Assembly (NCBI GenBank): GCA_963820825.1
Contig: CAWGBN010000008.1
Span: 320,001-384,000, forward strand
Reading direction: 5' to 3'
Length of the DNA: 64,000 nucleotides
From: Vulcanimicrobiota bacterium
Lineage (GTDB): Bacteria > Vulcanimicrobiota > Vulcanimicrobiia > Vulcanimicrobiales > Vulcanimicrobiaceae
Every line of letters starts with the position of its first letter. The first letter of the stretch is position 1. The translations under genes were made by a program, and so were the position numbers. The notes under the pieces are model-generated. The model was given only the letters and a program-made list of their open reading frames with translations. It did no database searches and had not been told where the DNA came from. This document shows positions 3,953 through 64,000 of the stretch, piece by piece.

Positions 3953-3963
3953 CCCCAGCTACG

Positions 3964-4336: not shown

Positions 4337-4352
4337 TCGCGGATCGCCTCGG

Positions 4353-5897: not shown

Positions 5898-5923
5898 CGC
5901 TCGCACGCCGGGAAGGTTCCAAA

Positions 5924-10092: not shown

Positions 10093-10094
10093 AA

Positions 10095-43680: not shown

Positions 43681-44646
43681 TCAACGGCTGCCGGCCGTGC
43701 TGAGCACCGCGCCGACCGGCTGGCGCAGCCCGGTCACCCGGGCGGTGGGGCTGCCCCCGGCGGGGTAGCGCCAGAGAGCGACGCCGCTGGGCTTGCGGGA
43801 GCAGCTTTCGTAATCGCCGGCGGCGACCCGGCTCTTCCCGACCCAGGCCTCGGCCACGTCGCAGGCGCCCGCGAGCGTCGTCCTTCCGACGATTCGCGCT
43901 TTCGTTCCCGCGACGGTGAGCCGGTAGAGACACGAGCTCGCCGAGTCGCGGCATTGCTGATCGCCGAGCACGAGCTTCGAACCGCTCCAGGCGACGGTTC
44001 CCGGAAAGTAGATCGTTCCGCCGGAGACCGCCACGAGCGCGATCGAGTTCGCACCGCGCGCGAGAACGCCGAGCGCGAAGAGGTGCTGCGAGCTCGCGCC
44101 GCTGACGTAGAGATTGCCGCTGCCGTCGTAGCCGGCAAAGTAATAGGAGTAGATGCTCTTGCTCTCGTAGGCGGCCGGCGTTCCACGCGCGTGTTTGTAG
44201 AGCAGAACGATCCCCGCGCCGCTGAAATTCTCGAGGTTCGTCACCGCAAGATCGCCGGTACTCGGATTCACGGCGCAGCCGACCGGATAACCGAACGCAT
44301 CGCGCAGCGTCGCGATCGGCGCCGTCCCGCCGTGCGCGTACTCGCGCATCTCGGACGACTGCGTGTTGGCGACCCAAACGTCGCCCGCCGAATCGGCGCA
44401 GAGGCCTTGCGGGCCGTCGAAGCCGGTTAATTTTCCCGCCGCTTTGAGCGACGGATACTCGTAGACGTGCACGGTAAACGTGCCGAGGTCGGAGACGTAG
44501 AGCAGCGCTTTCGCGGCGCTCGCCCGCGGCGACATCCACGATCTTGCGCCAGTTCCGATGCTCGGTGCGAGTTGCGAGGCCCCGCTGCACGCCGCTAGCG
44601 TTGCGGCGAACAAAAGACATGCGGGCCCGCCGAAGCGAGCCCGCAT
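43681..44646 (-). CDS. Hypothetical lipoprotein, beta-propeller-like
   Basis: LAAC lipobox; LLYVSD, PQGLCAD, YAHGGTAPIATL, GCAVNPSTGDLAV. Confidence 0.82.
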   Translation of the reverse strand: MRARFGGPACLLFAATLAACSGASQLAPSIGTGARSWMSPRASAAKALLYVSDLGTFTVHVYEYPSLKAAGKLTGFDGPQGLCADSAGDVWVANTQSSEMREYAHGGTAPIATLRDAFGYPVGCAVNPSTGDLAVTNLENFSGAGIVLLYKHARGTPAAYESKSIYSYYFAGYDGSGNLYVSGASSQHLFALGVLARGANSIALVAVSGGTIYFPGTVAWSGSKLVLGDQQCRDSASSCLYRLTVAGTKARIVGRTTLAGACDVAEAWVGKSRVAAGDYESCSRKPSGVALWRYPAGGSPTARVTGLRQPVGAVLSTAGSR

Positions 44647-44680
44647 GTTGCTTTTCCCTGCGTAGGACGCGATGACCAGC

Positions 44681-45778
44681 TTACTTCGTGCTGATCGCCG
44701 CGCCGGTCGGCAACGTGTAGGAGTTGTCGGGAATCACGTGGTTCGTGGGCGTTCCGCCGCCCGTATAGCCCCAGCGGTTGAACGAGCTGCTGGCAGTGCC
44801 GCAGTACTCGTAGTCGCCGCCGGCAACGTACTTCTTACCCTTGGCCGCGATCACGCCCTGAATCAGGTCGCAGACCGAGCCCTCGTTGTAGTTCGAGTAG
44901 GTCGTCGGCGTACCGAGCGCCGTTCCGTTCACCGGATAGCTGCACGCTTCGGTCGTGTCGTTGCAGAGCTGGTCGAAGACGACCCACTGGCCGCGCGCGT
45001 TATCCCATTGCACCGCGCCCGGGAAGTAGATCGTTCCGCCGGTGAGATTGAGCGTGCTGCAGCTCGAGACGCCGCAGACCGAGAGCTGGTAGAAACCGCT
45101 AGGGTTGCGTCCGCTCACCCAGAGGTCGCTGCCCGGGCCGTAGCCCAGGAAGTAGTAGAAATAGCCGCTCGGATTGGTCAGCACCGTCGGGCTCGAGGAC
45201 GGGCTCGAGAAGACGAGCACTTGTCCGGCGCCGCTGTTGCCGAAGAGGTTCGCGACCGCGAGGTTACCCGTTGCCGGGTCGACTGCGCAGCCGACCGGAT
45301 AGCCGTAGCTATCCGTGTAGGTGTTGAGCAGCGTGCCGGTGCGCGAGTATTCCAGGACCTGGAAGCCTCCGGTATTCGCAATGTAGATGTTGCCGTGCGT
45401 ATCGGAACACTCACCTTGCGGCTCGGAGAAGCCGGTCAGCGTGCCCTTGAGCGCCATGTCCGGCATCGTATAGATGTAGACGTCGTAGGTACCGGAATCG
45501 GAGGCGAAGTAGAGACGCGGCGCGAGCGCGGCGTCGGGCGAGACCCACGACTTGCGCGTGTCGCGGTGTACCTTCATGCCGTTCCACTTTACGCCGATGA
45601 ATGTATCGGCGATGCCGTGCCCGTGATGCATCGGATTGACGCCGTGCGAGCTGTCCGGCACAGCGGCCGGTGCGAGTCCTAACGCGCCGGTCGAAGAGCC
45701 GCTGCTGCTACAGGCGGCGAGCAATGCGGCGGCCGCGAGTACGCCAACAGCGTATGCGGCCGACCTTGTAATCTTCAT
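44681..45778 (-). CDS. Hypothetical lipoprotein, beta-propeller-like
   Basis: Start MKITRS; LAAC lipobox; PQGECSD, GCAVDPATGNLAV, IYFPGAV; paralog of its neighbour. Confidence 0.82.
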   Translation of the reverse strand: MKITRSAAYAVGVLAAAALLAACSSSGSSTGALGLAPAAVPDSSHGVNPMHHGHGIADTFIGVKWNGMKVHRDTRKSWVSPDAALAPRLYFASDSGTYDVYIYTMPDMALKGTLTGFSEPQGECSDTHGNIYIANTGGFQVLEYSRTGTLLNTYTDSYGYPVGCAVDPATGNLAVANLFGNSGAGQVLVFSSPSSSPTVLTNPSGYFYYFLGYGPGSDLWVSGRNPSGFYQLSVCGVSSCSTLNLTGGTIYFPGAVQWDNARGQWVVFDQLCNDTTEACSYPVNGTALGTPTTYSNYNEGSVCDLIQGVIAAKGKKYVAGGDYEYCGTASSSFNRWGYTGGGTPTNHVIPDNSYTLPTGAAISTK

Positions 45779-45859
45779 TGAAAAATGCTCCTTTTTGCTT
45801 TCATGAAAGTGCCTGTGAAGGCAAGACCACGGAGCCCGGCAAGACCGCCGGGGAGGCAA

Positions 45860-48726: not shown

Positions 48727-50127
48727 CTATTCAGTATCGACCGGGAGATATGAAGGCGGTCTATGCAAAAAGTAGCTGCGCGAGTACTTTGCCGCAATCG
48801 GAACGAAGGCGTGCGGCGGTACGTTGAAGTCGAAGCAGTCGACGAGGCTGTTCGCACGGATGTCGGTCGTTCCCAATCTTCCCAATCCCCAGACGTCCTC
48901 GACGAACTTGAGAATGCTGCCGAACTCGTAGGGCGTGTGCGAGATGTAGCCGGGCTGGCTCGGCTTGGTACGGCGCACGTACGGCGAGACAACCATCATC
49001 GGCACGCGAAATCCCAGGCCGCCCCATTTGTCGAAAAAGAGCGGTGGGACGTGATCGTAGAGGCCGCCCCAATCGTCCCACACGATGACGATCGCGGTGC
49101 TCTGCCAATACGAGCTCTCTCCCACCGCGTTGACGATGCTCGCGACCCACGACGGTCCCGTATCGGATTTATTTCCCGGATGATCGGAGTCCGGGTTGTC
49201 GGGCACGATCCACGAAACGGCCGGAAGCGTCCCGTTCGCGACGTCGTTGAAGAAAACGGGCGTCCGGGCGATGTTCGTCGTCCACTCCGGACCGTCACGC
49301 ACGGCCTTGATCGCATCGAATGCATTCCAGAGCGAGCCGGTGCCGTGCGGTTCGGCCGGCGAGTAGTACTTCCAGGAGACGTACTTCGCATCGAGCAGAT
49401 CGCGCATCGTCGGATACGTAAGGCAGGGAAACGGGCCTTTTTGGTACTCATCGTGGATCGTATGGTCTTTCACCACCAGCATTGAGGTGGTCGTTCCCGG
49501 CGGCGCGTCGCAGCCCCACGGCCGCTGCGAAGGAAAATCGACCAGACTCTTGGTGTCTTTCGGCTGATTGATCAGCGTGGCACCCGCGATCAAATCCTGA
49601 TGCGCGGTAAAACTTCCGCTGCCTTGCGTCTGGAAGAGGTGATCGGCGAGCACGTACTGCTGCGCGATCGACCAGTCGGGTGCGAGCTCGGTCGGATCCA
49701 CGTACTGATAGACCTTCGTCCCGACTTTGCCGGGGCATTTCTTGCTGCCGCCTTCCAAACCGAAGCCGTCCATCTTGCCGTGGTCGTAATCGACCGCGAC
49801 GATATGATAGGAGTGACCGAAGTCGCACGCACCGACGAGATCGACTCTCTGCAGCGGCACGTATTGATCGCCCGATCCCGATGGATTCTTCATGTAGCCA
49901 CCCGACGTGCCGTCGGCGCCCGGAAAGGTCGCGAAGAAATTGTCGAAGCTGCGATTCTCTTGAATCACGATGATCACGTGCTGGATGTCTCCGTTTCCGG
50001 ACGGCGCCCTTCGCACGCCGGCGCTGTCAGCCTGTCGAAGGGTGACCGGCGTCGATTGGGACGAGCAGGCGGCGCATGCGGCGGCGAGCGCAATTGCAAG
50101 GAAGAGCAGCCGGGTCTTTCTTGTCAT
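48727..50127 (-). CDS. Phosphoesterase/phospholipase C family lipoprotein
   Basis: Start MTRKTRLL; CAAC lipobox-like; [28 protein letters not shown]. Confidence 0.9.
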   Translation of the reverse strand: MTRKTRLLFLAIALAAACAACSSQSTPVTLRQADSAGVRRAPSGNGDIQHVIIVIQENRSFDNFFATFPGADGTSGGYMKNPSGSGDQYVPLQRVDLVGACDFGHSYHIVAVDYDHGKMDGFGLEGGSKKCPGKVGTKVYQYVDPTELAPDWSIAQQYVLADHLFQTQGSGSFTAHQDLIAGATLINQPKDTKSLVDFPSQRPWGCDAPPGTTTSMLVVKDHTIHDEYQKGPFPCLTYPTMRDLLDAKYVSWKYYSPAEPHGTGSLWNAFDAIKAVRDGPEWTTNIARTPVFFNDVANGTLPAVSWIVPDNPDSDHPGNKSDTGPSWVASIVNAVGESSYWQSTAIVIVWDDWGGLYDHVPPLFFDKWGGLGFRVPMMVVSPYVRRTKPSQPGYISHTPYEFGSILKFVEDVWGLGRLGTTDIRANSLVDCFDFNVPPHAFVPIAAKYSRSYFLHRPPSYLPVDTE

Positions 50128-50132
50128 GAGCC

Positions 50133-51530
50133 TCACTCGCTGTCGACGGGTAGATACGAGGGCCGCTGCGCCTCGAAGTAGGCGGGGGAATACTTCGCCT
50201 TGATCGGGGTGAAAGCGCGCGGCGCTTGGGTGAAGTCGAAACAATCGCCGATGCTCGTCGCGCGCTGATCGGTCGTGCCGAGACTGCCTAGCCCCCAGAC
50301 CGCTTCGACGAACTTCAGAATGCTGCCGAACTCGTACTGCGTGTGCGAGATGTAGCCGGGCGTGCTCGGATAGGCTTCGCGCGCGTAGGGCGAGACGACG
50401 AGCATCGGCACGCGAAAGCCGAGGCCGCCCCATTGATCGAAGAACGGCGGCGGTTCGTGATCGAAGAAGCCGCCCCAATCATCCCACACGACGATCACCG
50501 CGCTCGTGCTCCAGTAGTCGCTCTTGCCGACCGCGTTGACGATGCTCGCCACCCACGACGGGCCCGTGTCGGAACCGTTGCCGGGATGGTCGGAGTTCGG
50601 ATTGTCCGGCACGACCCACGAGAGCGCGGGAAGCCGCCCTTTCTTGACGTCGAGAAAGAAGCTTTTCGCCGAAGCGATGTTGGTGCGCCACTCGCGGCGC
50701 TCGCGCACCGCCTTGATCGCATCGAACGCGTTCCAAAATCCGCCCGTTCCGTCCGGCTCGGGCGGCGAGTAGGTCTTCCACGTAACGCCCTTGGCGTCGA
50801 GCAGATCGCGCAGCGTCCGATAGGTGAGGCAGGGAAACGGACCCTGATGGCGCTTGTAGGCGAGTCGCGATCCGCGTACTTCCAAGAGCGAGGTCTTCGT
50901 GTCGCGGCGCGCGTCGCATCCCCACGGCACGTGCGACGGAAAGTCGACGAGAGTCTTTGTTCGGCCCGGATTGATGAAGGTGGCGCCGGCGATGAGATCC
51001 TGATGCGCGGTGAAGCTCCCGCTCCCTTGCGTCTGGAACATGTGATCGGCGAGCACGTACGTTTTCGCGATCTCCCAGTAGGGCGCGATCTGCGACGGAT
51101 CGACGTACTGATAGGTCTCGAGTCCGGCCGGTCCCGGACACGGCTTTCCGCCGCCCTCGAGATTGAAGCCGTCCATCTTGCCGTTATCGTACTCTTTGAG
51201 AAAACCCGCGCGCGAATGGCCGAAATCGCACTTCTCGTTGAGCGGCGCCGAATGCAGGTAGACGTAGGTGTAGCCGCTCGGCGTCTTTATTCGTCCCCGC
51301 GTCGTGCCGTCGGCTTTTGGAAACGTCGCGAAGAGATTATCGAAGGTGCGGTTCTCTTGAACGACGATGATGACGTGCTGCAAGACGTCGGACCCGCCGC
51401 TCGATGCGGGCGGGATGGCGTTGCTTCCCGCACTCGTCGCGTTACGCACCGGACCGGCGCACGAAACGCCGGCCACCAGAGCGATCGAACCGATAAGGGC
51501 GCGCGCGAGCGCGCGCCGGCGACTCGTCAC
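50133..51530 (-). CDS. Phosphoesterase/phospholipase C family lipoprotein
   Basis: [28 protein letters not shown]. Confidence 0.9.
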   Translation of the reverse strand: MTSRRRALARALIGSIALVAGVSCAGPVRNATSAGSNAIPPASSGGSDVLQHVIIVVQENRTFDNLFATFPKADGTTRGRIKTPSGYTYVYLHSAPLNEKCDFGHSRAGFLKEYDNGKMDGFNLEGGGKPCPGPAGLETYQYVDPSQIAPYWEIAKTYVLADHMFQTQGSGSFTAHQDLIAGATFINPGRTKTLVDFPSHVPWGCDARRDTKTSLLEVRGSRLAYKRHQGPFPCLTYRTLRDLLDAKGVTWKTYSPPEPDGTGGFWNAFDAIKAVRERREWRTNIASAKSFFLDVKKGRLPALSWVVPDNPNSDHPGNGSDTGPSWVASIVNAVGKSDYWSTSAVIVVWDDWGGFFDHEPPPFFDQWGGLGFRVPMLVVSPYAREAYPSTPGYISHTQYEFGSILKFVEAVWGLGSLGTTDQRATSIGDCFDFTQAPRAFTPIKAKYSPAYFEAQRPSYLPVDSE

Positions 51531-52234
51531 CGCTGCCGCAAGTCGATGGCGCCCGTCGTGGTCTCGAGCCGAATCCGCCCGCCGCCGTTTCCGATCGTAC
51601 CGCCGCCACGCGCGCCGACGAGGTGTTCGCGCTCCTGCGTCACGCCGGGAACGTTGCTGGCAAAATCGCCGACCGTGCTAAATGCCTGCACCGCCGCGTT
51701 GCTCCCGGGCGCGATCGTCAGCGTGACCGCGCCGGTCGTCGCGCGCAGGGCGATCGATCGATTTGCGTTGACGCTGCCCGCGTCGGCGGTAATCTCGCCG
51801 GCCTGGGTCTCCACGTCGAGATTTCCGCGCACGCCGGCAAGGTCGATGGCGCCGGCATCGTTGGTGATGCGCAGCGAGGCGCCCTCGGGCACGGAGATCT
51901 TATAGCGGACCCCGCCGCCGTGCACGCCGCCTGAGTACCGTGTTTTGACCGAGACCCCGTCGATCTCGCGGCGGACGTCGATCGTTACGCCGCGCAGTTC
52001 CTCGGGGTCGTGGCCGTATTTCGTTGCCTGGACGTCCACGATCGGCTTCGGCCAGCCCTCGACCCGGACGGCGCCGGCGACGTTCTCGATTTCGACCGCG
52101 GGCGAGGCACCGGCGGCGATGCTCTGGTGCACCTGCTCCCGAACCCGCTCTCCGAGGTTTCCACTGCACCCGCCGAGCGCCGGGAGGATGCAAAAGGCGG
52201 TCGCGATTCCTCGAGCGAAGGCCTTGAGGGCCAT
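51527..52234 (-). CDS. DUF4097-like beta-strand repeat (adhesin-like) lipoprotein
   Basis: LGGC lipobox; repeated IENVAGAV/ITNDAGAI/VETQAGEI/LETTTGAI units. Confidence 0.8.
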   Translation of the reverse strand: MALKAFARGIATAFCILPALGGCSGNLGERVREQVHQSIAAGASPAVEIENVAGAVRVEGWPKPIVDVQATKYGHDPEELRGVTIDVRREIDGVSVKTRYSGGVHGGGVRYKISVPEGASLRITNDAGAIDLAGVRGNLDVETQAGEITADAGSVNANRSIALRATTGAVTLTIAPGSNAAVQAFSTVGDFASNVPGVTQEREHLVGARGGGTIGNGGGRIRLETTTGAIDLRQR

Positions 52235-52289
52235 AGTCGCGGTCACTCCGCGTCTACGGACGGTATCCCCTGCCTTGCCAACCGTCAAA

Positions 52290-52964
52290 ATGCTGCTGCA
52301 CGGAAGGACCGAGACCAGAACGATGGCCATACAGCCGGCACGGGTCCTTTTTATCGCCTCCTTCCCCCCACGGGAATGGGGCGTCGCGACCTTCACGCAG
52401 GACCTGGTGACGAACTATGCGGCCCTGAGCGGCGCTCGCGTCGACGTCATCCCGGTTTCGAACCCCGATTTCCGCGAGACGATCGCTTACCGGATCGTCG
52501 GTAATATCGCGGCAGCGCATCCGCAATCGTATTACGAAGCGGCCGCACGCGCGAATCGCGATCCGTACGAGGTCGTAAACATCCAGCACGAATACCGCTC
52601 CTTCGGGGGCGACACTGGCGAATGGTGCATCGGCTTCATGCGCGCACTCCGCAAGCCCGTCGTGCTCTCGCTCCACTCCGTCGTGCCGAATCCCAGCCCG
52701 AAGCATGCGACGATCGTGCGCGCCCTCTGCAACGCGGCCGCGAAAATCGTCGTGCTCGGCCGCGGCCCGCGCAAGCATTTGATCGCCAACTACGGCATCG
52801 ATCCGCTGAAGATCAAGGTAATTCTCGACGATCTTCCCGATATGCAAGCAGGCCTTCGCATCGCGCGGACGCACGCCGTCCTTTTTAAAGCCGTCCGCAG
52901 TTGGAACGTGGTACGCTCGCTCCCGCTCATGACGCCGGTCAGCCTCCCGACCTGCGCCGTCTAG
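52290..52964 (+). CDS. Glycosyltransferase family 4, N-terminal domain only
   Basis: FIASFPPREWGVATF, VVNIQHEY and VLSLHSV match a GT4 N-domain; no C-terminal nucleotide-sugar domain. Confidence 0.65.
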   Translation: MLLHGRTETRTMAIQPARVLFIASFPPREWGVATFTQDLVTNYAALSGARVDVIPVSNPDFRETIAYRIVGNIAAAHPQSYYEAAARANRDPYEVVNIQHEYRSFGGDTGEWCIGFMRALRKPVVLSLHSVVPNPSPKHATIVRALCNAAAKIVVLGRGPRKHLIANYGIDPLKIKVILDDLPDMQAGLRIARTHAVLFKAVRSWNVVRSLPLMTPVSLPTCAV

Positions 52965-52993
52965 GGCGTAGAACAACCTCTTCGGGGGGCGAG

Positions 52994-53059
52994 ACGAAGC
53001 AGCGGCGCGGTCGCCGTGACGCGCGATGGAACTCGTCCCGCGTCGCGCCGCTGCTTCGT
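52994..53059. terminator. Long inverted repeat between convergent genes
   Basis: Perfect 16-bp arms ACGAAGCAGCGGCGCG / CGCGCCGCTGCTTCGT. Confidence 0.6.
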
Positions 53060-53063
53060 TGAC

Positions 53064-54413
53064 TTACAACTGTCGGCGCTTGAGCAGACGCCGTGCCGGG
53101 ATGCCGTTGCGTCCAAAGGCGTCAATCCCGTGCGGTACCACCGGCATCGCATTGAGCTCGCGAGCAAGCGCGCCGGTGGCCGACGTCTTGCTGGTCAGAA
53201 CCCACGCCGCGTTATAGTTAAGCTGGTACCAAGGGCCGCCCCAGGCACCGAGGCTCTCCCACGCATTGCCATTTGAGTACATCGTATCCTGAAGCACCTC
53301 CACCATGCACACAGTGGTGTTGGTTGAATCGAGATAGTAGTCCATCGCGTTCGTCTCGTATATGCCCAAGATTGGGTCGAGATCCCAGTATGCTTCCTTC
53401 ACATCCGTGGCCTCTTCCCCGGAAAGCGTACCGCACGCCGACGGCATCGTCACCGTTCCGGCAACCGTATAATTGTCGACGTACGCGGGGTCGGGCAGCG
53501 CACCGCCTCCTGGATACCAGTCGGGCACCTGGGTCCTCCCGGTCGGGAAGGGCAATGGCGCCGTCCCCGAGGCCGTTACCGGGATATGCTCGTTTTTCAC
53601 CGCAGCGAACTTCCACGTTTCGGGGTTGACCCCGAGCCCCGGTAGGGAAAGCACGTACGTCGCCGGCTTGCCGAACGCGAAGTCGTACTGCTCGGCGTAG
53701 CCGCCATAGCTGCCGTAGTTCGCGAGCTGGTCCTGGCCAATGTACGAGCCGTCCGCGCCGTTGGTGCTACTGCCGTTGGCGCTGTATCCACCCGATCCGG
53801 TCTGCTTCTCAGAGTAGCTGGCGATACTTGCGGCCGCGCCACTCCAGGAGGAACCACTCGTCGCCGGATAGACGAATGCCGTCGCCCCTTGCGGATAAGT
53901 GGTCAAAGCGCTGTACTTAAACGTGCCGCTGGTTTCGGCAATCTTGGAAGAATAGTCAACCTGCGTGATAGACGACCCCGATGCGACGAAACCAAAGAGG
54001 GTCGATTGTTTCGACTTTCCTCCGGTCGATGTCGTATCTTTGGTTATCTCGGTATATATGCCGGTCTTCTTGTCGACGGAGAACTTGTAGATGAAAGTGC
54101 CGGTGGCGGTATTCGTTGGCCCCGGGCTCGGCGCGGCTGTCGGCCCGGACCATCTCGTAACGTTGTCGCTGCGATTCCATGCGTAAGTCAGGGTCTCGCC
54201 AGGGTTAAACGGGGGTGTCGCTTCGGTGTACGGCCCGGGCGGCCGAAGCAGCAGCCCTGAAGCCGTCTCGCGCACGGCCGCGGTCGAGTGCCCGGCATTG
54301 GGGAGTGCACTGGAACCCGAAGGCTGCATTCCAAGGCTCGAGCACGCCGCCACCCCGACGGCGCACATTCCTAGAAACAACGAACCAAGTCTTGGCCAAA
54401 GGCAACGATTCAT
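53064..54413 (-). CDS. Ser/Thr/Tyr-rich hypothetical secreted lipoprotein
   Basis: VAAC lipobox, AAAGGAG RBS, 449 aa. Confidence 0.8.
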   Translation of the reverse strand: MNRCLWPRLGSLFLGMCAVGVAACSSLGMQPSGSSALPNAGHSTAAVRETASGLLLRPPGPYTEATPPFNPGETLTYAWNRSDNVTRWSGPTAAPSPGPTNTATGTFIYKFSVDKKTGIYTEITKDTTSTGGKSKQSTLFGFVASGSSITQVDYSSKIAETSGTFKYSALTTYPQGATAFVYPATSGSSWSGAAASIASYSEKQTGSGGYSANGSSTNGADGSYIGQDQLANYGSYGGYAEQYDFAFGKPATYVLSLPGLGVNPETWKFAAVKNEHIPVTASGTAPLPFPTGRTQVPDWYPGGGALPDPAYVDNYTVAGTVTMPSACGTLSGEEATDVKEAYWDLDPILGIYETNAMDYYLDSTNTTVCMVEVLQDTMYSNGNAWESLGAWGGPWYQLNYNAAWVLTSKTSATGALARELNAMPVVPHGIDAFGRNGIPARRLLKRRQL

Positions 54414-54562
54414 CCGAGAGCTCCTTTCAATCCAACAGCGGCGAGGCCTGAAGGGCGAGGGATTCTAGCATCAAGCGGGCCCATTAGACCTAAGATGCGC
54501 CTACCTGCTGCCCTTGTAACATGTATCCATGATGGCGCTGCGGCGCGATTAGCGGAACGGAC

Positions 54563-54585
54563 ACTTGGACAACCGACTTGGACAA
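54563..54585. repeat. Tandem ACTTGGACAA boxes
   Basis: ACTTGGACAA at 54563 and 54576; partial TCGGACAAG near 54625. Confidence 0.5.
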
Positions 54586-54840
54586 GTGCGACCGATGCCG
54601 CCGAGGGCGTCAAGGCGCGGAGTCTCGGACAAGGCTTTAGAAGAAGCCTGTGCGTCGGCCCACGGCTCCGCGGGCACCTTGCCGCTCGGCGGACCGTCGT
54701 CTTACCGCGCCCCTTGCCGCAACCGGTATTGAATCCATGCTACTACACTTCTGCCCGCTGATGCTAAGCCGTGTGCGGGCACTCCGTTGACGACGTCGTC
54801 GCGAACCAATGCCTGATGGACACGATGGGCTTCGCCGAGG

Positions 54841-54871
54841 GATAATACATAAGGGCCTTCAAACGTCCGGT
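54841..54871. repeat. 31-bp direct repeat, copy 1 (dif-like)
   Basis: GATAATACATAAGGGCCTTCAAACGTCCGGT. Confidence 0.92.
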
Positions 54872-54890
54872 GCTGCCGACCCCAGCGCAT

Positions 54891-55887
54891 TCACGCCTCC
54901 GAGGATTGCTCGCTCTCGCCTGACTGATCGACCCGCAGGATGGCCTCCGCGATCTCCGCGTCTAGTCCGGGCTCGCTGGCTTTGCGAAGCTCAATAAGCC
55001 GGTCAGCCGCCCAAGTGGCCACTTTATCAATCTGGCTCGCAAGGGACGCTCGCTCGACGTTTTGAATGACGCGGATCGCCTGTCGGCGCCTGCCTTCTTG
55101 GAAGTCCCATGCGATGACACCGTTGACCCCTTCCTGGATCGAGTTCGAGCGCGCTCTAAGCAGTTCAAAAAGCCGCGCGTTAACGCCCGAGTCGGCGTGA
55201 TACAAAAAGACGTCCGAGCGTAGCTGATTCCGTCCAAAATTGACTGAGTACGCTATCGCTCCTTGGTGGGTTCGCTCCAGTACGTAGTCGGTATAGCGAC
55301 TCAAGGGCTCCAGCAATCGAGCGAATGCGCCACTGGCAACGGCGATCTCATGGATGCTGTCAAAAACCGCATTGAGTTGCTCTTGATCGGGCGCAACTTC
55401 GGTGCTCCTGGCTATCTGCGAAGTGCTTTTTTGCCACTGGTTCGGCAAGACCACAGTTCGGAAGTTGACCGCCGGCTTGGAGTCGTCGCAGCACTTCGAC
55501 TTGGATTCCAAAGAAATGCCTTGTGGCGATCGTGTTTACGTTAAGCCAGTCCAACGCCGCGCGATGCTCCTCCCGAAAAGTTGGGCTAATCCAGACGATG
55601 TGCCTTGCGTCTAATCCGGATGCATACGTCAGGATTTGGCCGAGGTGACGATGGTCGGTCGGTTCGATCTGGTTCTCGATGATGACTAGATCGTCCGTGC
55701 CAACGACGCGTGCGAGGATGTCTAATGAGAACGAGCCGACTTCGGCCTCACGTTTTAACAACTCTAGTTCGAGGCCTAGCATATCGCCGAGACGGTCAAG
55801 ATTGTCGGCAACCCACTTCGAGAAATGCACAGGTTCCGTAGGGAAGGTCTCACGAGGATTCAAGAAACGAAGCGTCCCGAGATCCAT
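54891..55887 (-). pseudogene. DUF4268-type protein with N-terminal PD-(D/E)XK nuclease-like domain, frameshifted near 55490
   Basis: FSLDILA...VIIENQIEPTDHRHLGQILTYASGL; continues as DDSKPAVNFRTVVLPNQW in ORF 54891-55511. Confidence 0.75.
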
Positions 55888-55951
55888 ATTAGCCTGTTCT
55901 CCTGAGATTGATATCGCTTAGCAGCTAAGAGCCTTCGGCGCGAGCGGCGCT

Positions 55952-55982
55952 GATATTACATAAGGGCCTTCAAACGTCCGGT
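55952..55982. repeat. 31-bp direct repeat, copy 2 (dif-like)
   Basis: GATATTACATAAGGGCCTTCAAACGTCCGGT. Confidence 0.92.
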
Positions 55983-56021
55983 TTGCGTTCGGCAGATCGC
56001 GACGCGGGCACATTGCCAGTC

Positions 56022-57044
56022 CTATAAAGCCAAGGTAATTACAACGGCAGAAATTCTTATGAGCGCGCGCTTCGTGAAGGAGTGAATCGTGTTGATGGGA
56101 GCCACGTTACCATTGGAGCCGGCGGCATAAACGTTTATTCCGGCTGCGCGCCCGTTTGCTTCGTAGATGTTGTCGGAGCTGTCCAGAGCGATGCCAATTG
56201 GACGTCGCATCGTTGTCAGGTGTCCATGGATCTTGCGGATGGGTGCTTCGTTGCCATCGGCTCCCGCGGGGTACACCGTAGAGATAGGCTGGATTGGAGT
56301 TAAAGTCTGCCACGTATATGTTCCCGCTGGAATCGAACGCGAGCTCCGTAGGATGAACCAATTTCGTACGGCTGCCAGCGATCGTTCGCATGGGCGTAAC
56401 GTTAGCCGTGCTGCCAGCGGCGTAGACGGTGATAGACGCCCCCGGCGTTTGCAACGTAAATGTTTCCACTTGTGTCCAGCGTGATCCCAGCCGGGAAAGA
56501 CAGTCCGGTACTTGGGCCGCTGATTACTCCGAGGGGAGCGACGTTTCCACTTGCGCTCGCTGCGTAGATCGTGATGCTGTTGTTTTCCAGAGTTTGCAAC
56601 GTAGAACTCTTCATTGTATTGGTCGAAGGCAATGCCGAAAGGGCTGTTCAATCCCGTTGCTGGGCCTCTTATCTTCTGTATTGGCGCGACATTCCCCATC
56701 GCGCCAGCGGCGTAGACGGTAACGGAGTCCCCACCGCCCTGGTTTGTAACATACAGGTTGCCGCTTCCATCTTCCGCGACGTCCCTCGGCGCAGCAAGCC
56801 TGGTGTTTGAGCCGCTTATCTCTCGTATCTGCGCCCAGTTGCCGCTGGTGCCTTCGCGCCCAAAGACCGCCAACGTCCTGCTCCATAAGGTATATAGGCA
56901 GGGGCACGAACTCGTGCTCCGTTTGATAGTTCCTGATTGGTTTTGCTGAGCGGCGTTCGCGCTTGAAAAGAGGGTATTTCCCCCGCAGCTTGTAAGTAAC
57001 AAAATCGCCATCGATGGGGCAACGATGTACGTTGCGGTTGACAT
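56022..57044 (-). pseudogene. NHL-repeat beta-propeller lipoprotein, several frameshifts
   Basis: LTSC lipobox; repeated PxGIALDSSxNIYVAN...VYAAGxxGNVAP units spread over three frames. Confidence 0.75.
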
Positions 57045-57167
57045 GCGCACAATCACGCTCCTTTTTCTGCAACTTGCAATGCGCGGCAAGGTCCTAAGCT
57101 ACTTATCTAATGATCCCTGCCGCCCTCCTGGTGAATCAAAGGACAAGGCGGTCGGACCGCGGTTGCC

Positions 57168-57198
57168 GATACTACATAAGGGCCTTCAAACGTCCTGT
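57168..57198. repeat. 31-bp direct repeat, copy 3 (dif-like)
   Basis: GATACTACATAAGGGCCTTCAAACGTCCTGT. Confidence 0.92.
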
Positions 57199-57210
57199 TA
57201 GCCTGCGTCC

Positions 57211-59208
57211 TCATCCGTTGCTTACTGCATGCGTCATCGCTGGCACCCATGCAAACGAGAAGAGGTCGCGCATCCCATCTGCATCGATTCCGTTCGGTCC
57301 CACCCCGAACGCGTCGAAGAGTCTGCCGTACTTGCGGGTAAGCGCATAAACCAGGTTTACGTTCTCCTCAATCTGCTGCTCCGGCAGTTCCGGGTATTCG
57401 TCCGTCCGATTGCGGTGCGCCACATATTGGTTGGTGATGGTTACCAGCGCACGGCAAGCCTTCTTGAGCGCCTTTATGTCAGCCGCAATCTTCTCCGAGC
57501 TCATGTGAGTACCTGAGGCATCGGCAATGGCGGCAAAAGCTGCGGCGGCTTCGCCTTCGTATCGCTCTTGCCATTCGCGCCGAACCGACAGCGCTCTGGT
57601 CTTGAGCGTCTCGACGCACTTCTCAAGGCCGTAGGCCGTCGGATTGAGTTTTAGCTCTGTTAGGAAGTTTAGGAGGGAGACGCTGCGAACATCTGAGTCG
57701 ATCTGGCGGCGTACAGCCACCATGACGGATTCGACGACGGCTCTAGCGATGAACAAGAACATGTAGATGCTCGCAGGATGCTCGACGACGCGCGCATTCG
57801 ACATGCCAGCCGCGTGAATGACCTTGAAGTGTTGCCATACCGTCCAAGCATTGTTGATTTCAATGCCGATGGTTTCGATGTCAGCCTTCCATCTCGCGAT
57901 AAGGGCTTCGTCTGTGGGGATGCGACGGCGTTCCCATGGCTTGATCGCAACGAGTGTGCGGCGGAAGAACTCAAGGAAGCGCTCCAGGTCTGCGTGTGGA
58001 TCGGGATTGTAGAATGTGCCCGAGCCATCTTCGTGTTGCACTAAGACGACGTGCTTCATCGGTGAGCCGAGCAGAGCGAGCTTCGCCTTGTAACGAGCCA
58101 TAGCGATGACGTAATCACGCATCTCGCCTGTGAAGTAGTCCGCATCAGTGAAGTAGCCGAGCTCGACGGCTTTCGCGTCGATCTCTTCGTCGCTAAAATC
58201 GTTATCGTCGGCGTAGACTACCTGCTGGGTCAACAGCTCACGGTGAACCGAAGTGTGCCGCATATCGCGCAATAGCCCATAACTATCCCAGAACGCGTCC
58301 TCTTTGAACAGCGCATAAACCTCCGGTGCGCTCTGCTTGATAGCGCGTTGAAACGATGACTTGAGAGCGCCTATTTGAGAATCTGGAGTTGGCAAGTTGT
58401 ATGCTCTTACGATCAACGTCGCGGTTTGATCGAACGCGGTGTAAAGATTCACGTAGAACTGATTTAGATAGGCAGTGTATTCGAAACGGAAATCCTGACG
58501 CTCGAACCCTGCTCGGTGCGCCCAGCGATCCTGCTGACGGTAGAATGCCATCCGGTCGCGACTAAAGCAGAGCGTCTGGAGAGTCAGTACGAGCAGGCGC
58601 ATCGCTTCCGCGGTTTCCGACGACACCTTCTTCGACTGCTCCCACTCGTGGAGAATGTCCGTGAAAATGCTGTGCTCGCTCATTGCGTAGAACTGCATCC
58701 ATGGTTGAAACTTCGCCGCCCCTTCGAACGACCACGGAGCGTTAAAACCCTTGGCATGCAATTCCGCTTGTCGCAGAACTCCGGCTATCGTGCTCGTCAC
58801 CAGCGCCGAATCGTCGGTGATGGCTGGATGCAGCTGCTTTTCGTCGCCCGACAGAACAACGTCGCAGTCGTAGCGTCTCGCGATTCGTGCAACCTCGTCG
58901 GCGTCGGACTCATCGAAAGCCGCAATCTTACTAAACTCGACGGTGAGCGATTCGAGCGTGGCAATCGCAGTAGCCGCCTGCGCGGGAACGAACAACGTGA
59001 CCTTCAGATCATCGAAGCCGAGGTCCGCGAAATACCAGTTCAGCAGTTGGATGCGCGCGAGCCGTTCGCTGTTTGCGGCGTCCAGGGTCTGGTCGGCGAC
59101 GAGCACGTCCAATCCCCTCTTCCAGAGACCCGTGCTCGTTATCGTAGCCGTGCCGTAATCGTAGAGGAACCGTAGGGCGAGATTCCGTGGAATCATTTGA
59201 ACCACCAT
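57211..59208 (-). CDS. Multidomain HEPN protein (possible PIN-like + HEPN + AbiU2-like HEPN)
   Basis: 665 aa. Acidic N-terminal motif (SDADEV...DCDVVLSGD), RHTSVH (Rx4H), and a C-terminal DSDVRSVSL...TNQYVAHRN segment resembling AbiU2. Confidence 0.6.
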   Translation of the reverse strand: MVVQMIPRNLALRFLYDYGTATITSTGLWKRGLDVLVADQTLDAANSERLARIQLLNWYFADLGFDDLKVTLFVPAQAATAIATLESLTVEFSKIAAFDESDADEVARIARRYDCDVVLSGDEKQLHPAITDDSALVTSTIAGVLRQAELHAKGFNAPWSFEGAAKFQPWMQFYAMSEHSIFTDILHEWEQSKKVSSETAEAMRLLVLTLQTLCFSRDRMAFYRQQDRWAHRAGFERQDFRFEYTAYLNQFYVNLYTAFDQTATLIVRAYNLPTPDSQIGALKSSFQRAIKQSAPEVYALFKEDAFWDSYGLLRDMRHTSVHRELLTQQVVYADDNDFSDEEIDAKAVELGYFTDADYFTGEMRDYVIAMARYKAKLALLGSPMKHVVLVQHEDGSGTFYNPDPHADLERFLEFFRRTLVAIKPWERRRIPTDEALIARWKADIETIGIEINNAWTVWQHFKVIHAAGMSNARVVEHPASIYMFLFIARAVVESVMVAVRRQIDSDVRSVSLLNFLTELKLNPTAYGLEKCVETLKTRALSVRREWQERYEGEAAAAFAAIADASGTHMSSEKIAADIKALKKACRALVTITNQYVAHRNRTDEYPELPEQQIEENVNLVYALTRKYGRLFDAFGVGPNGIDADGMRDLFSFAWVPAMTHAVSNG

Positions 59209-59278
59209 GTTCTACAGCGCAGCGCGTCGCCGTCCGCCCTAGACCGTTTCAGCCCAGGAGAGTAGAGTATCACGTTCG

Positions 59279-60625
59279 TCAAGGCCTCTGGTTTCGTTCA
59301 GGGCTGTTGCTTGCGCGGCCGGTGACTCGGCGCCGGTTATTCTCGGCGAGCACGGCGCCTCGTTTCTTCGCCGCCTCGCCTCCGTGCCCGGGATTAAGAC
59401 CGGCCGCACGCATCTCAGCAAGCCGCGCCTGCGCCTTCTCGATCGGCTTCGCTACCTCGACGCTATAGCGCAGATAGCAATGGCGCCCGCAGAACTTCAG
59501 TCCTTTCCGCGGTAGCGGCTCCTTGCAGTAGCCGCAGGTGGACTCGATCCCACGCCGCGCGCCGCTGCTCGATCGGCTTCGGCGCTTCGCGAACCAGCCG
59601 CCGCGGCACGGCGATCCGGCGCAACTGCTTGGCGTAGTCGTTCGCGAGCTCCAGCGCCGCCTTGCGGAAACGGGGCATCAGCGCCGAGGCGAGGAGTCCC
59701 GTCAGATCGGGATCGAGCCGTACAACCCCATCGCGCAGCTCATGGAACATCGCCGGGTGCAGCTTCTCTTTGTGGAGCAGCTCCAGCGCCCACACGTCGG
59801 CCTTCGCTCGCAGCGGTTCGAGCAGATCGTAGATGAACGATTCGCGCAGCCGATCGTCGGTGTGGAGCAGCCCAAGGTCGGGGTCGAGCCCGACCGCCTC
59901 GCAGGCGATCCGCGTCTCCACTTCGAGCAGCGTATAGCAGTAGTTCAGGATCGCGTTGAACGGATCGGTCGCATCGCGTACCCGTTCGCGTCTCCCGTTT
60001 GTCCGCGGACGAGATCGCCGCCCAGTGCGCCGGTATCCGCTTGAGTGCCCACGGTCGCCACGGCAGCGGCGTCTCGACTAGGAGATTCCAGTAGACTTGT
60101 GCGGCACGTCCCTCCAGCGCGAGGAAGTCCACAAGCGTCGTCGTTTCCATCAGCGACGCTTTGCATGCGTGGATTTCCGAGGTTGCCGTGGACTTCCCGG
60201 AGACGTTCACGATTCCGAGTCTCGGAAAGTCTCGTTCGATCGCGGAAATCTGCGAGTCCAGTTTCTTTTCCAAGGAGGTACCGCGCCAAGTTCACCGCGT
60301 CGTCCGTCACCGCGGAGACCGCCTGTGCCCGCTTCACCGGTCCGTCGTGCGGCGCGTCGGGAACCATGCAGTTCAGCAAGGTACTGTCGGACGCCACGAA
60401 CGAGACGGCGATCCCCATGCGGGCACACCAGTCGATCGCCTCCATCGAGACGGTCCCGCCCGGCGCGCGAATGACGATCCGTTCGATCGAGCACCGTCCG
60501 CGCGGGAAGCGGATTTCCCGGGTCTTTCCTTCGCTTGCGAAACCGTCGCGCGTGACGAGGTGGCCTCGCTCGACAAATAGTTGCGCGTTGTAGCCTTCGA
60601 TGGTGAGAACGCGATCATTGTGCAT
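59279..60625 (-). CDS. cas1: Stand-alone Cas1 (casposase-like) with C-terminal zinc finger; three frameshifts as assembled
   Basis: N-domain GGTVSMEAIDWCARMGIAVSF; LEGRAAQVYW (Glu); ATDPFNAILNYCYTLLE; GLDPDLGLLHTD (His); SFIYDLLEPLR. Tail CGYC...FCGRHC, stop at 59279. Indels near 60270, 60005 and 59545. Confidence 0.9.
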
Positions 60626-61616
60626 GGTCTACTCCAATGACTTTTGGAACGAGTTTGTAGGTTGTTGCAAACGAGTCGATTGCGGTATCGATCCCCTGTG
60701 TGTCACCAGCGAGGTAAGCCGCCATATTCGCTATGCCCCTCTCGTCGTGACTGACGTCGAATGCACCAGCATAGGCGAGGCTGCGAAGCGCAGCATCCGT
60801 CGCCTCGAACTCCGATGCATCTTCGACGATCGGGTAGCTGGGCACCGGACGAATCGGCACGCGCACGCCGGCCGCTTCCAAACGCCCAATGAGCAGCGCC
60901 TGCATCTGCATCGTCTGAACCGCAGCGCGAACCTCCGGCTCGGGGGCATCTCCACTCGTAACGATCTGAAAATGGCTGTGCCGGCCCTGACGAAGCCAAG
61001 GCGTGATTTGGTCTAGTAGAAGCATTGCTTTGGGTGCAAACTCGATCGCTGCGCTCTCATCAACGCGCATCATTGTAAGTAATCGAATAACGTCGCGCTC
61101 GAAGAAAGCGCCCTCGTTGTAGGCTACGGGAAGCAGCATGCGGGCGGCATGCTCGGTAAGGTCTCGCGCTAGTTGGTAGGCGGGGTCAGCTTTGATCTTT
61201 CGCTTCGGCACGAACTCATTCGCCAGCTGTCGCGCAAGATGCGGGATGCGCCGCGGATGAAAGCCGATGCCGCTCCAGCTGTTCGCGCGATGGAGCTCCC
61301 GATCGACCTTCGCCAACGCCGCGGAAATTCGATCGCGGGCGCCGCGATGCACCCGGTCCCATGGAATGGTGTGGTAGTTGCGATAGGCCAGTTCGAGACA
61401 GAGGCCATCATGATCGCGGGCAAGCTGCATAGTGCCCTCGATCGACAATATGTATCGCAGATCGATCAGCGCGGCATCGGAGATCCGGTATTGGCGTCCG
61501 CAGCGCGTCGAGCGTACGCCAAAAATGCGTAGCCGGTGCAACTTGTCCGACCCGATCCTAAAGCCCTCAGCCCGCAGCTGGTCGAGGGCCTCGCTCAAAA
61601 GCGGTCCGTCAACCAC
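60615..61616 (-). CDS. Hypothetical protein (possible N-terminal DNA-binding domain), overlaps cas1 start
   Basis: 333-aa ORF whose stop overlaps the cas1 start by 11 nt. Confidence 0.65.
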   Translation of the reverse strand: MVDGPLLSEALDQLRAEGFRIGSDKLHRLRIFGVRSTRCGRQYRISDAALIDLRYILSIEGTMQLARDHDGLCLELAYRNYHTIPWDRVHRGARDRISAALAKVDRELHRANSWSGIGFHPRRIPHLARQLANEFVPKRKIKADPAYQLARDLTEHAARMLLPVAYNEGAFFERDVIRLLTMMRVDESAAIEFAPKAMLLLDQITPWLRQGRHSHFQIVTSGDAPEPEVRAAVQTMQMQALLIGRLEAAGVRVPIRPVPSYPIVEDASEFEATDAALRSLAYAGAFDVSHDERGIANMAAYLAGDTQGIDTAIDSFATTYKLVPKVIGVDHAQ

Positions 61617-61716
61617 CTAGAGGGTATTCGGCGCGGCAGCTTTTGGCTCCGCGTGAAGTTGTCAGTTCCGCGCCTTTTCTGGCGGCGTAGCAGGCGTCAG
61701 AAAGGAGGCCTGAGTC

Positions 61717-62214
61717 ATGGCCAAATCACGGGTGTTCCTGGGCATCGACCAACTGTTCTACCACCAGGACGCGTATCGACGCGCCCTCGATGCGATCGGC
61801 TTCAAGCGCCGACATCCCAAAATGTCGTTCACGAAAGCTGCGAAGCTGAGCGGCACCACGATCAAGACGGTTCGCAAGTACGCCGGATCGGCAATGGAGG
61901 TCCGATCCGGACGGATCGACGTAACGCGAACAGATGCGCTCAAGCGCCGGATGCGCATGCTCACGCCCCAGGGTGAGATCGCGGTCCCGACGACGAGCTC
62001 GCAGACTGCCTCGCGGATCAGCCGGTACAACAACGCGGTGCGCGAGTTTTACGCCACCGGCAAGACGGCGGCGCTCAAGCCATTCGTTGGTAAGTCAGTG
62101 CGTTCGGGTGGAAAGCGGTACGAGTTCGTCACGAATCCCGCCACGCTCAACCGGCTTGGCCGCGCTGGCAGCGTACACTTCTCGGAGATCTATGCTCCTG
62201 AGTCCGAATCATGA
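61717..62214 (+). CDS. Basic HTH-containing hypothetical protein
   Basis: AAAGGAGG RBS; SFTKAAKLSGTTIKTVRKYA helix-turn-helix pattern; ATGA overlap with the next gene. Confidence 0.75.
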   Translation: MAKSRVFLGIDQLFYHQDAYRRALDAIGFKRRHPKMSFTKAAKLSGTTIKTVRKYAGSAMEVRSGRIDVTRTDALKRRMRMLTPQGEIAVPTTSSQTASRISRYNNAVREFYATGKTAALKPFVGKSVRSGGKRYEFVTNPATLNRLGRAGSVHFSEIYAPESES

Positions 62215-62853
62215 GGCCCGTCTATCAGGAGCCAAACGACGGCAACGACACCAAGAAGCTGCTGCGCTTGGGCACCGATCGGCCGCGCTGTGCGAGCTGC
62301 CGGACCGACGACTTCCGGCAGCTCTGCTCCGTGCACGACGCTCGGGGCCGCAGACGGATCTTATGCCGGAACTGCCGCGCCAAGCACAAGCGCCTCTCAG
62401 CAGCAGCTGCAGCACGCAAACGGCGGCAGTTTGCAGCTGACGGCTACGAGCAGCCTGCATGCGTGGTGTGCGGGGAGCCAGCGCTGCAGCTGCTTGAGCG
62501 CGATCACCTCACGGGAGCTGCCAATAGCGGTAGCACGGAGCCTTTGTGCGCTAATCATCACGCGATCAAGTCGTACATGGCCGAGCACGGGCTGATGGCA
62601 GCTCTGCGGCTGCGTGATCCGGAGCGATCGGCCTTGCTTTTGCAGGCAGCATTCGAGTTCGGCCTTGGTGCGATGCTCGGGATGTTCGCAGTTGGGACGG
62701 CGCGCACGGAGAGACGGCACGCTGCATCTTCTTGGGTCGCCTCCGTGCTGCTCTTTGCATGGGCTGCGTGGAACGTTTCGGCGGACTGCGTACTTCGAGG
62801 GTGTACTGGGACCGGGCTACGATCGCGCGATCGGGGCGGCGGTGCCGCGATGA
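62211..62853 (+). CDS. Zinc-finger/HNH-like protein with hydrophobic C-terminus (frameshifted)
   Basis: CASC, CRNC, CVVC...RDHLTG...LCANHH. The likely true end YFEGVLGPGYDRAIGAAVPR* at 62853 overlaps the polB ATG. Confidence 0.65.
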
Positions 62854-64000
62854 TCCGGCGCGAGGCTCCGCGGGCGCGAAGGCGTCCCAACGGGCTCCGA
62901 AGGGCGCGGCCGCAAGCCTCAGCACCGTCCGAACTCGTCGCAATGGCGGCTCAGCCCCCTATCAGCAGGCGCAGGACGGGCATTCTCGCCGTCGATACGG
63001 CGATTCGGGCGTGGGTCGAACCGCACAAGGCGCACAGCGCGTCAACGGTAAGCCGAAGACCGTTGCGTGGCGTCCGCAGCCCTACGGCGATCGCGTTCTG
63101 GTCTTCGACACGGAAACCACGACCGACGCGGCGCAGCGGCTCCTCTTCGGGTTCTTTCGCCTCTACGAGCGTCGATCGGCTGATCGAGGAAGGCCTCATC
63201 GTCACCGACCTGCTCGATTACGAGCAGATGATGACGCTCGACCGAATACGCGGCGACAATGCCACTTGCCGATCTACAGCCGCGAGCGCTTCGTGGAAGA
63301 AGTGTTCTACCCGGAGGTTTACGAGCGACGGCACCCTCTGCGTGGGCTTCAACCTGCCGTTCGATCTCACGCGGATCGCCGTTCACGCGGGAATCGGCCG
63401 TGGCGAAAATCGCCGCAAGTTCCGCCTGGTCACTTTCGAGGCGCATTCGCTGGCACGATTTACGCATTGAATCCGCCTCGGGCCGTGCAGCCTTTATCGG
63501 GTTCATCCCCAAGCGCAAGCTCTTCGCGTGGGAGAAGCCGTTCTTCGCCGGGCGCTTCTGCGATCTCAGCACGCGTCGCAGTGCGTTCACCGGCAAGCGT
63601 CATACGCTCAAAAGCGCGGGCAATGCATTTACGGACCTAGCACGCGCAAGATGACGTGCGCCGGAGCTCGGCGTGATCGACCGGCGCTCCTGCTCTACGG
63701 GCGGCAGGACGTCCGTGCAACCTGGGCACTGTACAAGGCGCTACGTGCAGTGAGTACGAGCGACACCCCTTCGCTACGTTCGCGAACGAGCGCAGCAAAC
63801 CCAAGCACGGGCACGTTACATGGGGCGAGCTGTATTCCAGCGCGAGCATTGCCAAGCAATATCTGCGCCTGCTCGGGATTACGCCGCTGCTACATAAGCG
63901 CCCGGCACTTCTCGCGCAAGCTCTGGGCAACGCGATCGCCGCGTACTTCGGCGGCCGGGCCGACGTGCGCGTACGCAAGACGGACGTGCCGGTGCGCGTG
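62850..64000 (+). CDS. polB: Family B DNA polymerase, protein-primed type, N-terminal part; frameshifted, runs off window
   Basis: Across frames: ExoI VFDTETT, ExoII GFNLPFDL, ExoIII YGRQDV, and YFGGR preceding the expected motif A. Confidence 0.8.

Follow-up and report, generated by a model that had tools for sequence, protein, structure and literature searches.

What are three direct repeats of CRISPR length, stacked with whole genes between them, doing downstream of a cas1 gene? The question is raised by a 64,000-nucleotide stretch of DNA from a Vulcanimicrobiota bacterium (assembly GCA_963820825.1, contig CAWGBN010000008.1, positions 320,001 to 384,000), hereafter the window. It corresponds to G000:C8:320001-384000 in the coding used here, in which G### denotes the genomes of relatives, with G000 the window's own (2.98 Mb, 85% complete), and L### denotes loci. 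A preliminary description of the sequence had considered that Cas1 inserted repeatedly at one target, duplicating it, or that a casposon used a dif-like site as its target. We found that the repeat forms the ends of a bacterial casposon, as its terminal inverted repeat (TIR); casposons are self-synthesizing transposons that combine a Cas1 integrase (the casposase) with a family-B polymerase. We consider it probable that a degenerate element of this kind has its cas1-proximal end here, and that the two inner repeats are older, buried termini.

The 31-nt pattern GATANTACATAAGGGCCTTCAAACGTCCKGT matched the window at three positions (54841-54871, 55952-55982 and 57168-57198), every copy being on the plus strand and free of mismatches in a search that allowed up to 3, and matches were obtained in 0 of 100 shuffled sequences. 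The copies are spaced 1,111 and 1,216 nt apart, and their 23-nt core does not differ among copies 1, 2 and 3. Each spacer holds one gene, and the PDC-S11-type, NHL and HEPN genes of the region lie with cas1 on the minus strand; from right to left, the order is an unknown gene, cas1, the HEPN gene, copy 3, the NHL gene, copy 2, the PDC-S11 gene and copy 1. These exact matches confirm the arrangement first described, that is, three direct repeats in the CRISPR size range, co-oriented with cas1 and separated by single-gene spacers of about 1.1 kb. The stack had also been placed directly downstream of cas1; it is downstream, but not adjacent, a 2-kb HEPN gene lying between copy 3 and cas1. The G+C content is 55-56% across 55000-59000, compared with 60-65% in the flanks. 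A fourth copy proposed at 63883 by the repeat search was rejected as a chance match that does not continue into the motif.

Searches for known kinds of repeat or signal returned little. There was no CRISPR-like tandem array in 50000-64000, no match to a Cas2 family in the 85%-complete genome and no other cas family among the 71 open reading frames (ORFs) scanned with Pfam. Rfam, run over the whole window, gave a tRNA at 4264-4336 as its sole match and nothing in the non-coding segment 54420-54840. RNA folding of the three sites revealed no structure (z = -0.18, +2.07 and +0.33), and a promoter and terminator scan at the sites did not score above shuffled sequences, which rules the sites out as terminators.

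The identity of the repeat emerged from its distribution. Within the window's own genome, the 23-nt core occurs only in the three window copies and at one site on contig C6, where a hidden Markov model (HMM) adds a second copy, and both loci carry cas1 remnants. Using a 19-nt core with up to 3 mismatches, we recovered matches in 37 of 91 genomes of the genus, often in 2-4 copies, and in none of the 16 relatives outside the genus; the control search, with the reversed pattern, gave scattered single matches. In relatives, the motif forms inverted pairs that bound elements of 2.8-18 kb, and 7 of the 8 pairs tested have perfectly matching (14/14) flanks of 14 nt beyond their GGGATA ends, the pair in G085 being the one that fails. 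The repeat is thus the end sequence of an element with Cas1 and a putative PolB, with a repeated length of 31-43 nt in the window, which bears out the suspected link to Cas1. It also disposes of an objection raised in the preliminary description, that no terminal inverted repeats are visible inside the cassettes, as the repeats themselves are the TIRs. They are not duplications of the target, as had been proposed: the duplicated target is a different sequence, 14 nt long, which in the window reads ATGGGCTTCGCCGA.

Target sites usually fall inside a conserved 412-aa gene without a Pfam family. At three loci (L064, L035 and L113), inverted pairs split this gene into a part with residues 1-186 and a part with residues 181-412, so that residues 181-186 are present to either side of the insert. 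In the window's own genome, the gene is intact and empty at C8:190133-191368, and the exact 14-mer ATGGGCTTCGCCGA is found only there (C8:190673) and directly to the left of copy 1. The occurrence of both occupied and empty target sites indicates the mobility expected of a casposon. Two further hallmarks, TIRs and a target duplication of about 14-15 nt, are present in relatives, while the window element keeps its left end only, with a single target copy.

At that left end, a plus-strand fragment resembling the leader side of the target gene (54786-54824, codons ~168-181) stands at a spot with no intact gene; the target gene aligns to 54786-54839 with 89% identity over 18 aa (tblastn), and the same context of about 40 nt lies upstream of terminal TIR copies in relatives. 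It is followed by ATGGGCTTCGCCGA at 54825-54838 (plus strand), the left copy of the target-site duplication, and by TIR copy 1 at 54839-54881 (plus strand), which is of the terminal type and begins GG-GATAA. Copies 2 (55952-55994) and 3 (57168-57210), both on the plus strand, are internal and are preceded by CT and CC, respectively, in place of GG. At the opposite end, no TIR was found within 5 mismatches of the core in C8:370001-400000 or by the HMM across the whole genome, and no second exact ATGGGCTTCGCCGA lies near the element. The fourth direct copy that had been suggested as a check at the right end is absent, and the right end of the window element is itself missing.

The difference between copy 1 and the other two is general. 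GG precedes all 13 terminal copies, each with target-like sequence upstream. Of the 18 non-terminal copies that were properly anchored, none has it and 8 are preceded by CT. Direct stacks are also recurrent, in keeping with the suggestion that homologous elements be surveyed for them: at least one internal direct copy is present at the cas1-proximal end in about 7-8 of the 16 elements for which that end was identified (the window, L113, L115, L120, G075-C13, G061, which is partial, G058, which is complex, and G073). Intact elements without an internal copy also exist (L035, L064 and L119). Across elements, TIR copies are spaced from 82 nt to 2.6 kb apart, and the repeated length differs between elements, from 31 to 74 nt. 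A motif scan of metagenomes yielded 20 loci with mainly terminal copies and no new long stacks.

Several observations connect internal copies with former ends. An alignment of 371 nt that takes in copy 3 and the 3' end of the HEPN gene shows 93% identity to loci L017/L022 of G012, where the orthologous copy is a terminal TIR, the end of a 2.8-kb miniature element with its own 14/14 target duplication; on this basis, we read the internal copies as former termini. In G094, near-perfect target sequence lies upstream of an internal copy (p=0.002). At L115, a stretch of about 100 nt directly behind an internal copy is collinear with the target and the 3' side of the target gene, and its offset equals that found at the true terminus (p=0.004, uncorrected for the 16 tests made). 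The intact casposon at L113 has TIRs of 1.24 kb that are 97.6% identical (1595-2834 and 16637-17850), each consisting of a terminal motif, a gene and an internal motif, with homology ending at the inner edge of the internal motif. Its ends are as would be expected if an outer unit had been added to a shorter, older TIR and then copied across. Each of these TIRs holds a whole gene, of 335 and 359 aa, and the longest casposon TIR reported in the parts of the 2014 survey drawn on here measures 602 nt (PMC4046053).

On this reading of the window as the cas1-proximal end of a decayed casposon, copy 1 (54839), with its GGGATA start next to ATGGGCTTCGCCGA, is the present terminus, and the transferred strand would end in ...CCC-3'. 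A new outer unit, made up of a TIR and one cargo gene, would be added between the target and the old end, which would thereby become internal. The stack would grow outward gene by gene, with the HEPN gene the oldest, then the NHL propeller gene and then the PDC-S11 gene. Internal copies keep the presumed casposase-binding core and, on this account, have lost the terminal GG, so that only the outermost copy should serve as an end. Loss of GG would inactivate old ends, and each unit would presumably be added in a casposase step. Such a step might be an insertion at the retained target, in tandem or through one end, after which the inner end was lost; it might instead employ a surrogate end further out, or the unit might be duplicated. 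A casposase study reports a need for a 3'-C nucleotide and for a target that extends 30 bp beyond the duplicated segment in one direction (PMC6977970); by analogy, the casposase of window-type elements may share the 3'-C requirement. Serial addition at the target-side end is the best reading of the stack, and it partly supports the idea of repeated Cas1 insertion building the array, without the part in which the repeats are target duplications.

A more far-reaching version, that the stack is a fossil of polarised capture in which the casposase adds units of TIR plus gene and disarms the previous end through loss of GG, strikes us as unlikely, though worth stating. If true, it would be a gene-sized natural analogue of CRISPR array growth, with repeats descended from transposon ends and not from the target.

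A number of observations weigh against the interpretation of copies 2 and 3 as buried termini. Tests for the remnant of a right end plus target gave borderline values that do not amount to significance at the two copies (p=0.05 and 0.07) and were not significant at 4 of the 7 sites overall, and target-gene context was not significant at the window copies (p=0.55-0.99). No 14-nt target copy precedes the internal copies of the window, although one would be expected had units been inserted into a retained target. The three cores are identical while any old flanks are unrecognisable, so that concerted evolution or selection on the core is needed. The recurrent CT or GCT before internal copies is not accounted for by simple decay. 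In G073 and G018, direct pairs only 82-89 nt apart resemble built-in subterminal binding sites. The two units of L115 hold paralogous lipoprotein genes whose 5' regions are 81-88% identical, and tandem duplication of a terminal unit is therefore possible there. Finally, no intact element of this kind shows activity in the window's own genome.

A rival account is that the internal copies were subterminal casposase-binding sites from the outset, never termini, with cargo inserted later between them and the terminal sites. Tn7 and Mu carry multiple end sites for their transposase, and the closely spaced pairs in G073 and G018, the retention of the core together with the lack of the cleavage-end GG at all 18 non-terminal copies, and the greater likeness of internal to terminal copies within one element than of copies across elements are all in line with such a design. 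A built-in site is harder to reconcile with its absence from the intact elements at L035, L064 and L119, with spacings that range from 82 nt to 2.6 kb, with the terminal position and separate target duplication of the copy 3 counterpart in G012, and with old target DNA beside the internal copies of G094 and L115; we regard it as an unlikely account of the stack. Alternatively, units of gene plus TIR might shift or be duplicated by recombination between TIR copies, the stack acting as a cassette platform independent of casposase chemistry. Homologous recombination, unequal crossing-over or gene conversion could operate here, also through the conserved 5' ends of cargo genes. The identity of the three 23-nt cores fits this, as do the similar 5' regions of successive units at L115 and the N-termini of the p335 lipoprotein/propeller cargo, which are conserved across many loci. 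By our reasoning, however, recombination between canonical elements cannot yield adjacent direct copies without inverted ones between them; moreover, the repeats are short (31-75 nt), and a search of the 90 other species genomes returned no match to cassette 1 or 2 above 72% identity, so that no shared mobile cassettes are seen. We judge this route improbable.

Two other models fare worse. That Cas1 inserts whole genes at one target, duplicating it each time as in CRISPR adaptation, is the model of the preliminary description and would suit a stack at the target-proximal end next to cas1 to which new units seem to have been added outward. Yet the element's duplication is 14 nt long and of another sequence, the repeat forms the inverted terminal pairs of the element itself, its repeated length varies between elements, and the outermost copy alone has GG, which together make the model very improbable. 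Even less credible is the proposal that the copies are dif-like Xer sites or integron attC sites and the genes recombinase-driven modules. Each unit does pair a single gene with a site at the gene's 3' end, and the motif contains ACATAA, which resembles the inner part of XerD arms. A dif site, however, should be a single conserved chromosomal copy independent of other mobile elements, and the core is confined to a minority of the genus (37 of 91 genomes), is multi-copy and sits beside cas1 remnants at both loci of the window's own genome. No hairpin was detected at the sites, the ORFs scanned at 41.9-76 kb included no recombinase of the tyrosine or serine type, and no integrase family of an integron was seen among the ORFs scanned.

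The preferred reading, a casposon end with buried termini, can be set beside known systems. Like bacterial casposons of family 3, the related elements have Cas1, a zinc finger, HNH, a PolB candidate and TIRs, and they resemble them in duplicating about 14-15 nt of target, in inserting at specific sites and in carrying restriction-modification genes among their cargo. Reported casposon TIRs span 25-602 nt with a median target duplication of 15 nt, HNH occurs in families 2 and 3, and zinc-binding Cas1 fusions occur in some bacterial family-3 elements (PMC4046053). Four family-3 casposons were listed in 2014 (Krupovic et al. 2014, PMC4046053). The likeness is one of features; the hosts here are metagenome-assembled genomes (MAGs) titled Candidatus Cybelea or Eremiobacterota, and insertion is into a coding motif of a 412-aa gene. 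No direct stacking of TIRs with intervening genes is described in the portions of PMC4046053, PMC4779613, PMC6977970 and PMC9939771 (main text) drawn on here. Literature searches linking casposons with Eremiobacter found nothing, and those on casposons with cargo, defence or metagenomes found nothing on direct TIR stacks, as judged from listings.

In Methanosarcina, tandem casposons that share one target duplication have been described, along with solo-TIRs (Krupovic et al. 2016, PMC4779613). The same repeated use of a target is seen in G012, G017 and G099, and TIR remnants without a full element also occur here. The Methanosarcina tandem units, however, keep both inverted ends, whereas each window unit has one TIR, always oriented the same way; target copies are missing between the units, as is the terminal GG of the internal copies. 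With CRISPR arrays, the window shares a Cas1-family integrase, apparent growth at the end beside a leader-like sequence and direct repeats of CRISPR length, but its repeats are transposon ends and not duplicated target, its spacers are genes of 1.1-1.2 kb, and no Cas2 was found. Tn7, Mu and IR/DR elements have several transposase-binding sites per end, with a terminal cleavable site and, as here, inner copies in which the binding core persists and the cleavage end does not; here the sites can lie kilobases apart with genes between them, and several intact elements have no inner copy at all. Integron cassettes and pdif modules are single-gene units that each end in a conserved, co-oriented site. 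The window shares this layout, but without integrase or Xer dependence and without a folded attC-like site, the site being a transposon end.

Stacked TIR copies, GG-less where internal, that bracket cargo genes represent a new feature in an otherwise known casposon type. They suggest a route by which casposons could gain cargo one gene at a time, and they indicate that direct arrays of Cas1-linked, CRISPR-length repeats can arise from transposon ends, an origin that bears on how CRISPR repeats first arose. Comparative studies and in vivo mobility experiments in the literature surveyed concern archaeal casposons. This genus may offer a good natural system for bacterial casposition, with many elements, perfect 14-nt duplications and occupied and empty sites, as well as miniature derivatives, IS110 insertions apparently aimed at the TIR and defence-gene cargo.

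The genes of the window's element show both its kinship and its decay. The outermost cargo gene (54891-55887, minus strand) is a PDC-S11-type candidate defence gene with a Pfam match to DUF4268, which a frameshift divides into two ORFs, 55360-55887 and 54891-55511; its N-terminal part matches the PADLOC profile PDLC04911 at 7e-59 (profile positions 4-138) and its C-terminal part at 2e-16 (140-311). The second (56022-57089, minus strand), whose true start is probably near 57045, encodes an NHL/SGL beta-propeller protein with weak Pfam matches to SGL, NHL and SBBP, and has paralogues of 65-72% nucleotide identity in many genomes of the genus. The third (57211-59208, minus strand) encodes a 665-aa HEPN protein, AbiU2-like and Cthe_2314-like (Pfam PF18734 at 1e-8 and PF18730 at 1e-3). 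The cas1 pseudogene (59327-60625, minus strand) matches Cas1 in Pfam and PADLOC and falls into four frame segments with 80-93% identity to the intact 444-aa Cas1 of L035, which implies three frameshifts relative to intact relatives. Overlapping the cas1 start is a conserved casposon gene (60618-61748, minus strand), a homologue of p378 with 84% identity over 377 aa to L035:6044-7180; p378 has no match in Pfam, NCBIfam, PADLOC, PHROG or PDB. Next come a small conserved gene homologous to p181 (61696-62211, plus strand, 88% identity), with only a sub-threshold hint of a MerR-type helix-turn-helix, and an HNH-like gene (62211-62816, plus strand) with 79% identity to p214 of L035, which matches PHROG 2255 (HNH endonuclease) at 4e-4.

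Remnants of a putative family-B DNA polymerase gene, in several ORFs (62985-64000, plus strand), run on past the window to about 65873, after which comes a peptidase S46 gene. By tblastx, the module 59309-65873 is collinear with the G005 element as far as, and including, the polymerase gene, which is intact there and encodes 1,012 aa. With three frameshifts in cas1, a fragmented polymerase gene and no right end, the window element is a truncated, dead casposon. A remnant of an IS3-family transposase (HTH_21 plus rve; L032:12875-13592), about 8 kb beyond the right edge of the window, is flanked by a sortilin/BNR protein gene and two lipoprotein/propeller paralogues. In a soil-metagenome run (X1), contigs match the HEPN gene (window 57290-59096) at about 94-95%, with short cas1 pieces at lower identity; as a single public run available as contigs only, with 5% of sampled words present and no joints, it is uninformative on cassette dynamics.

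Intact relatives show what such an element looks like when complete. Those at L035, L064 and L113 are 17-18 kb long and encode Cas1 proteins of 444-451 aa with a C-terminal CxxC...CxxxC finger; the L035 protein (4720-6054) matches PF01867 at 2e-36 and, as its best PDB match, 6opm_A at 2e-15, which is the Methanosarcina mazei casposase-DNA complex (PMC6977970). The three elements also carry the upstream gene that overlaps cas1, the small gene, the HNH-like gene and a gene for a protein of about 1,000 aa. An alignment of five homologues of this protein contains DTET, NLPFD, YGRQD, DFTAMY, SGAYG and CDTDS blocks, which we take to be the exonuclease and A, B and C motifs of family-B polymerases. 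It scores 0.99 against polymerase clusters in the ESM Atlas, 12-36% of whose members have PF03175; PF03175 itself was detected in 2 of the 5 homologues (best E 0.029), PHROG 1907 was matched at 5e-4, and a profile search of the PDB gave Pol alpha at a non-significant E of 0.64. These matches lean weakly toward a polymerase of the PF03175, protein-primed type. Cargo in related elements includes DruA, HerA-like ATPase, Eco57I-type methylase, RelA/SpoT-like and ParA-like genes, and lipoprotein/propeller paralogues are frequent. Relatives with Cas1 proteins 77-100% identical are MAGs titled Candidatus Cybelea, Eremiobacterota or Vulcanimicrobiota, together with one short contig labelled Gemmatimonadaceae, and about 11 intact casposase genes were counted among the 91 species genomes.

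The window's own genome contains a second decayed casposon (L031; G000:C6:616000-635999), with a C-terminal cas1 fragment at 3933-4398, a terminal TIR with target-like flank at 9003-9040 (minus strand) and a further TIR copy at 10295-10332 that has a 6-nt insertion after GGGATAA. The C6 copy had been tried as a chromosomal dif site and was rejected on account of this setting; contigs C6 and C8 show too little GC skew for a terminus to be placed. The genus also contains another multi-copy Cas1 family, which shares 31-38% identity with the casposase, is encoded by ORFs of 500-690 aa and gives up to 12 matches in one genome, and a second PolB/p181-like set, with 31-33% identity, lies at C2:407456-411179 and C9:755-2919 of the window's own genome. 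To judge from these homologies, the genus may host a second casposon family.

Miniature non-autonomous derivatives of 2.8-7.4 kb were identified in G012 (L022:9183-12023), G014 (L025:10035-14584) and G090 (L066:6386-13784); they have both TIRs and perfect 14-nt duplications, and contain cas1 and PolB fragments only, plus cargo genes. IS110-family insertions lie inside or beside casposon TIRs, always joined at ...CCATC|TACA, in G075 (L060:6247-7655 and 8901-10309), G082 (L070:10221-11714), G100 (L074), G094 (L062:8351-9355) and at L115:3753-5018. The two G075 copies are 98% identical and each breaks one TIR copy, and at L115 the IS110 breaks a cargo lipoprotein gene. The pattern looks like that of an IS110 element targeting the casposon end.

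Paralogues are also abundant elsewhere in the window, where 23 ORFs match Pfam PF04185 (phosphoesterase/acid phosphatase-phospholipase C) and are spread over 3-51530, many of them as head-to-tail paralogues of about 445-460 aa (for example, 8731-10092, 15462-24862 and 33686-41824). The array is unusually dense, and a further PF04185 ORF lies just to the right of the window (L032:18174-19664). A family of lipoprotein/NHL-propeller-like proteins of about 320-400 aa is encoded in the window (30150-31109 and 43681-45859), at L032:13466-15661 and at many loci of relatives. Its members have strongly conserved N-termini (65-87% identity) and divergent bodies, and are frequently found both as casposon cargo and beside phosphoesterase arrays.

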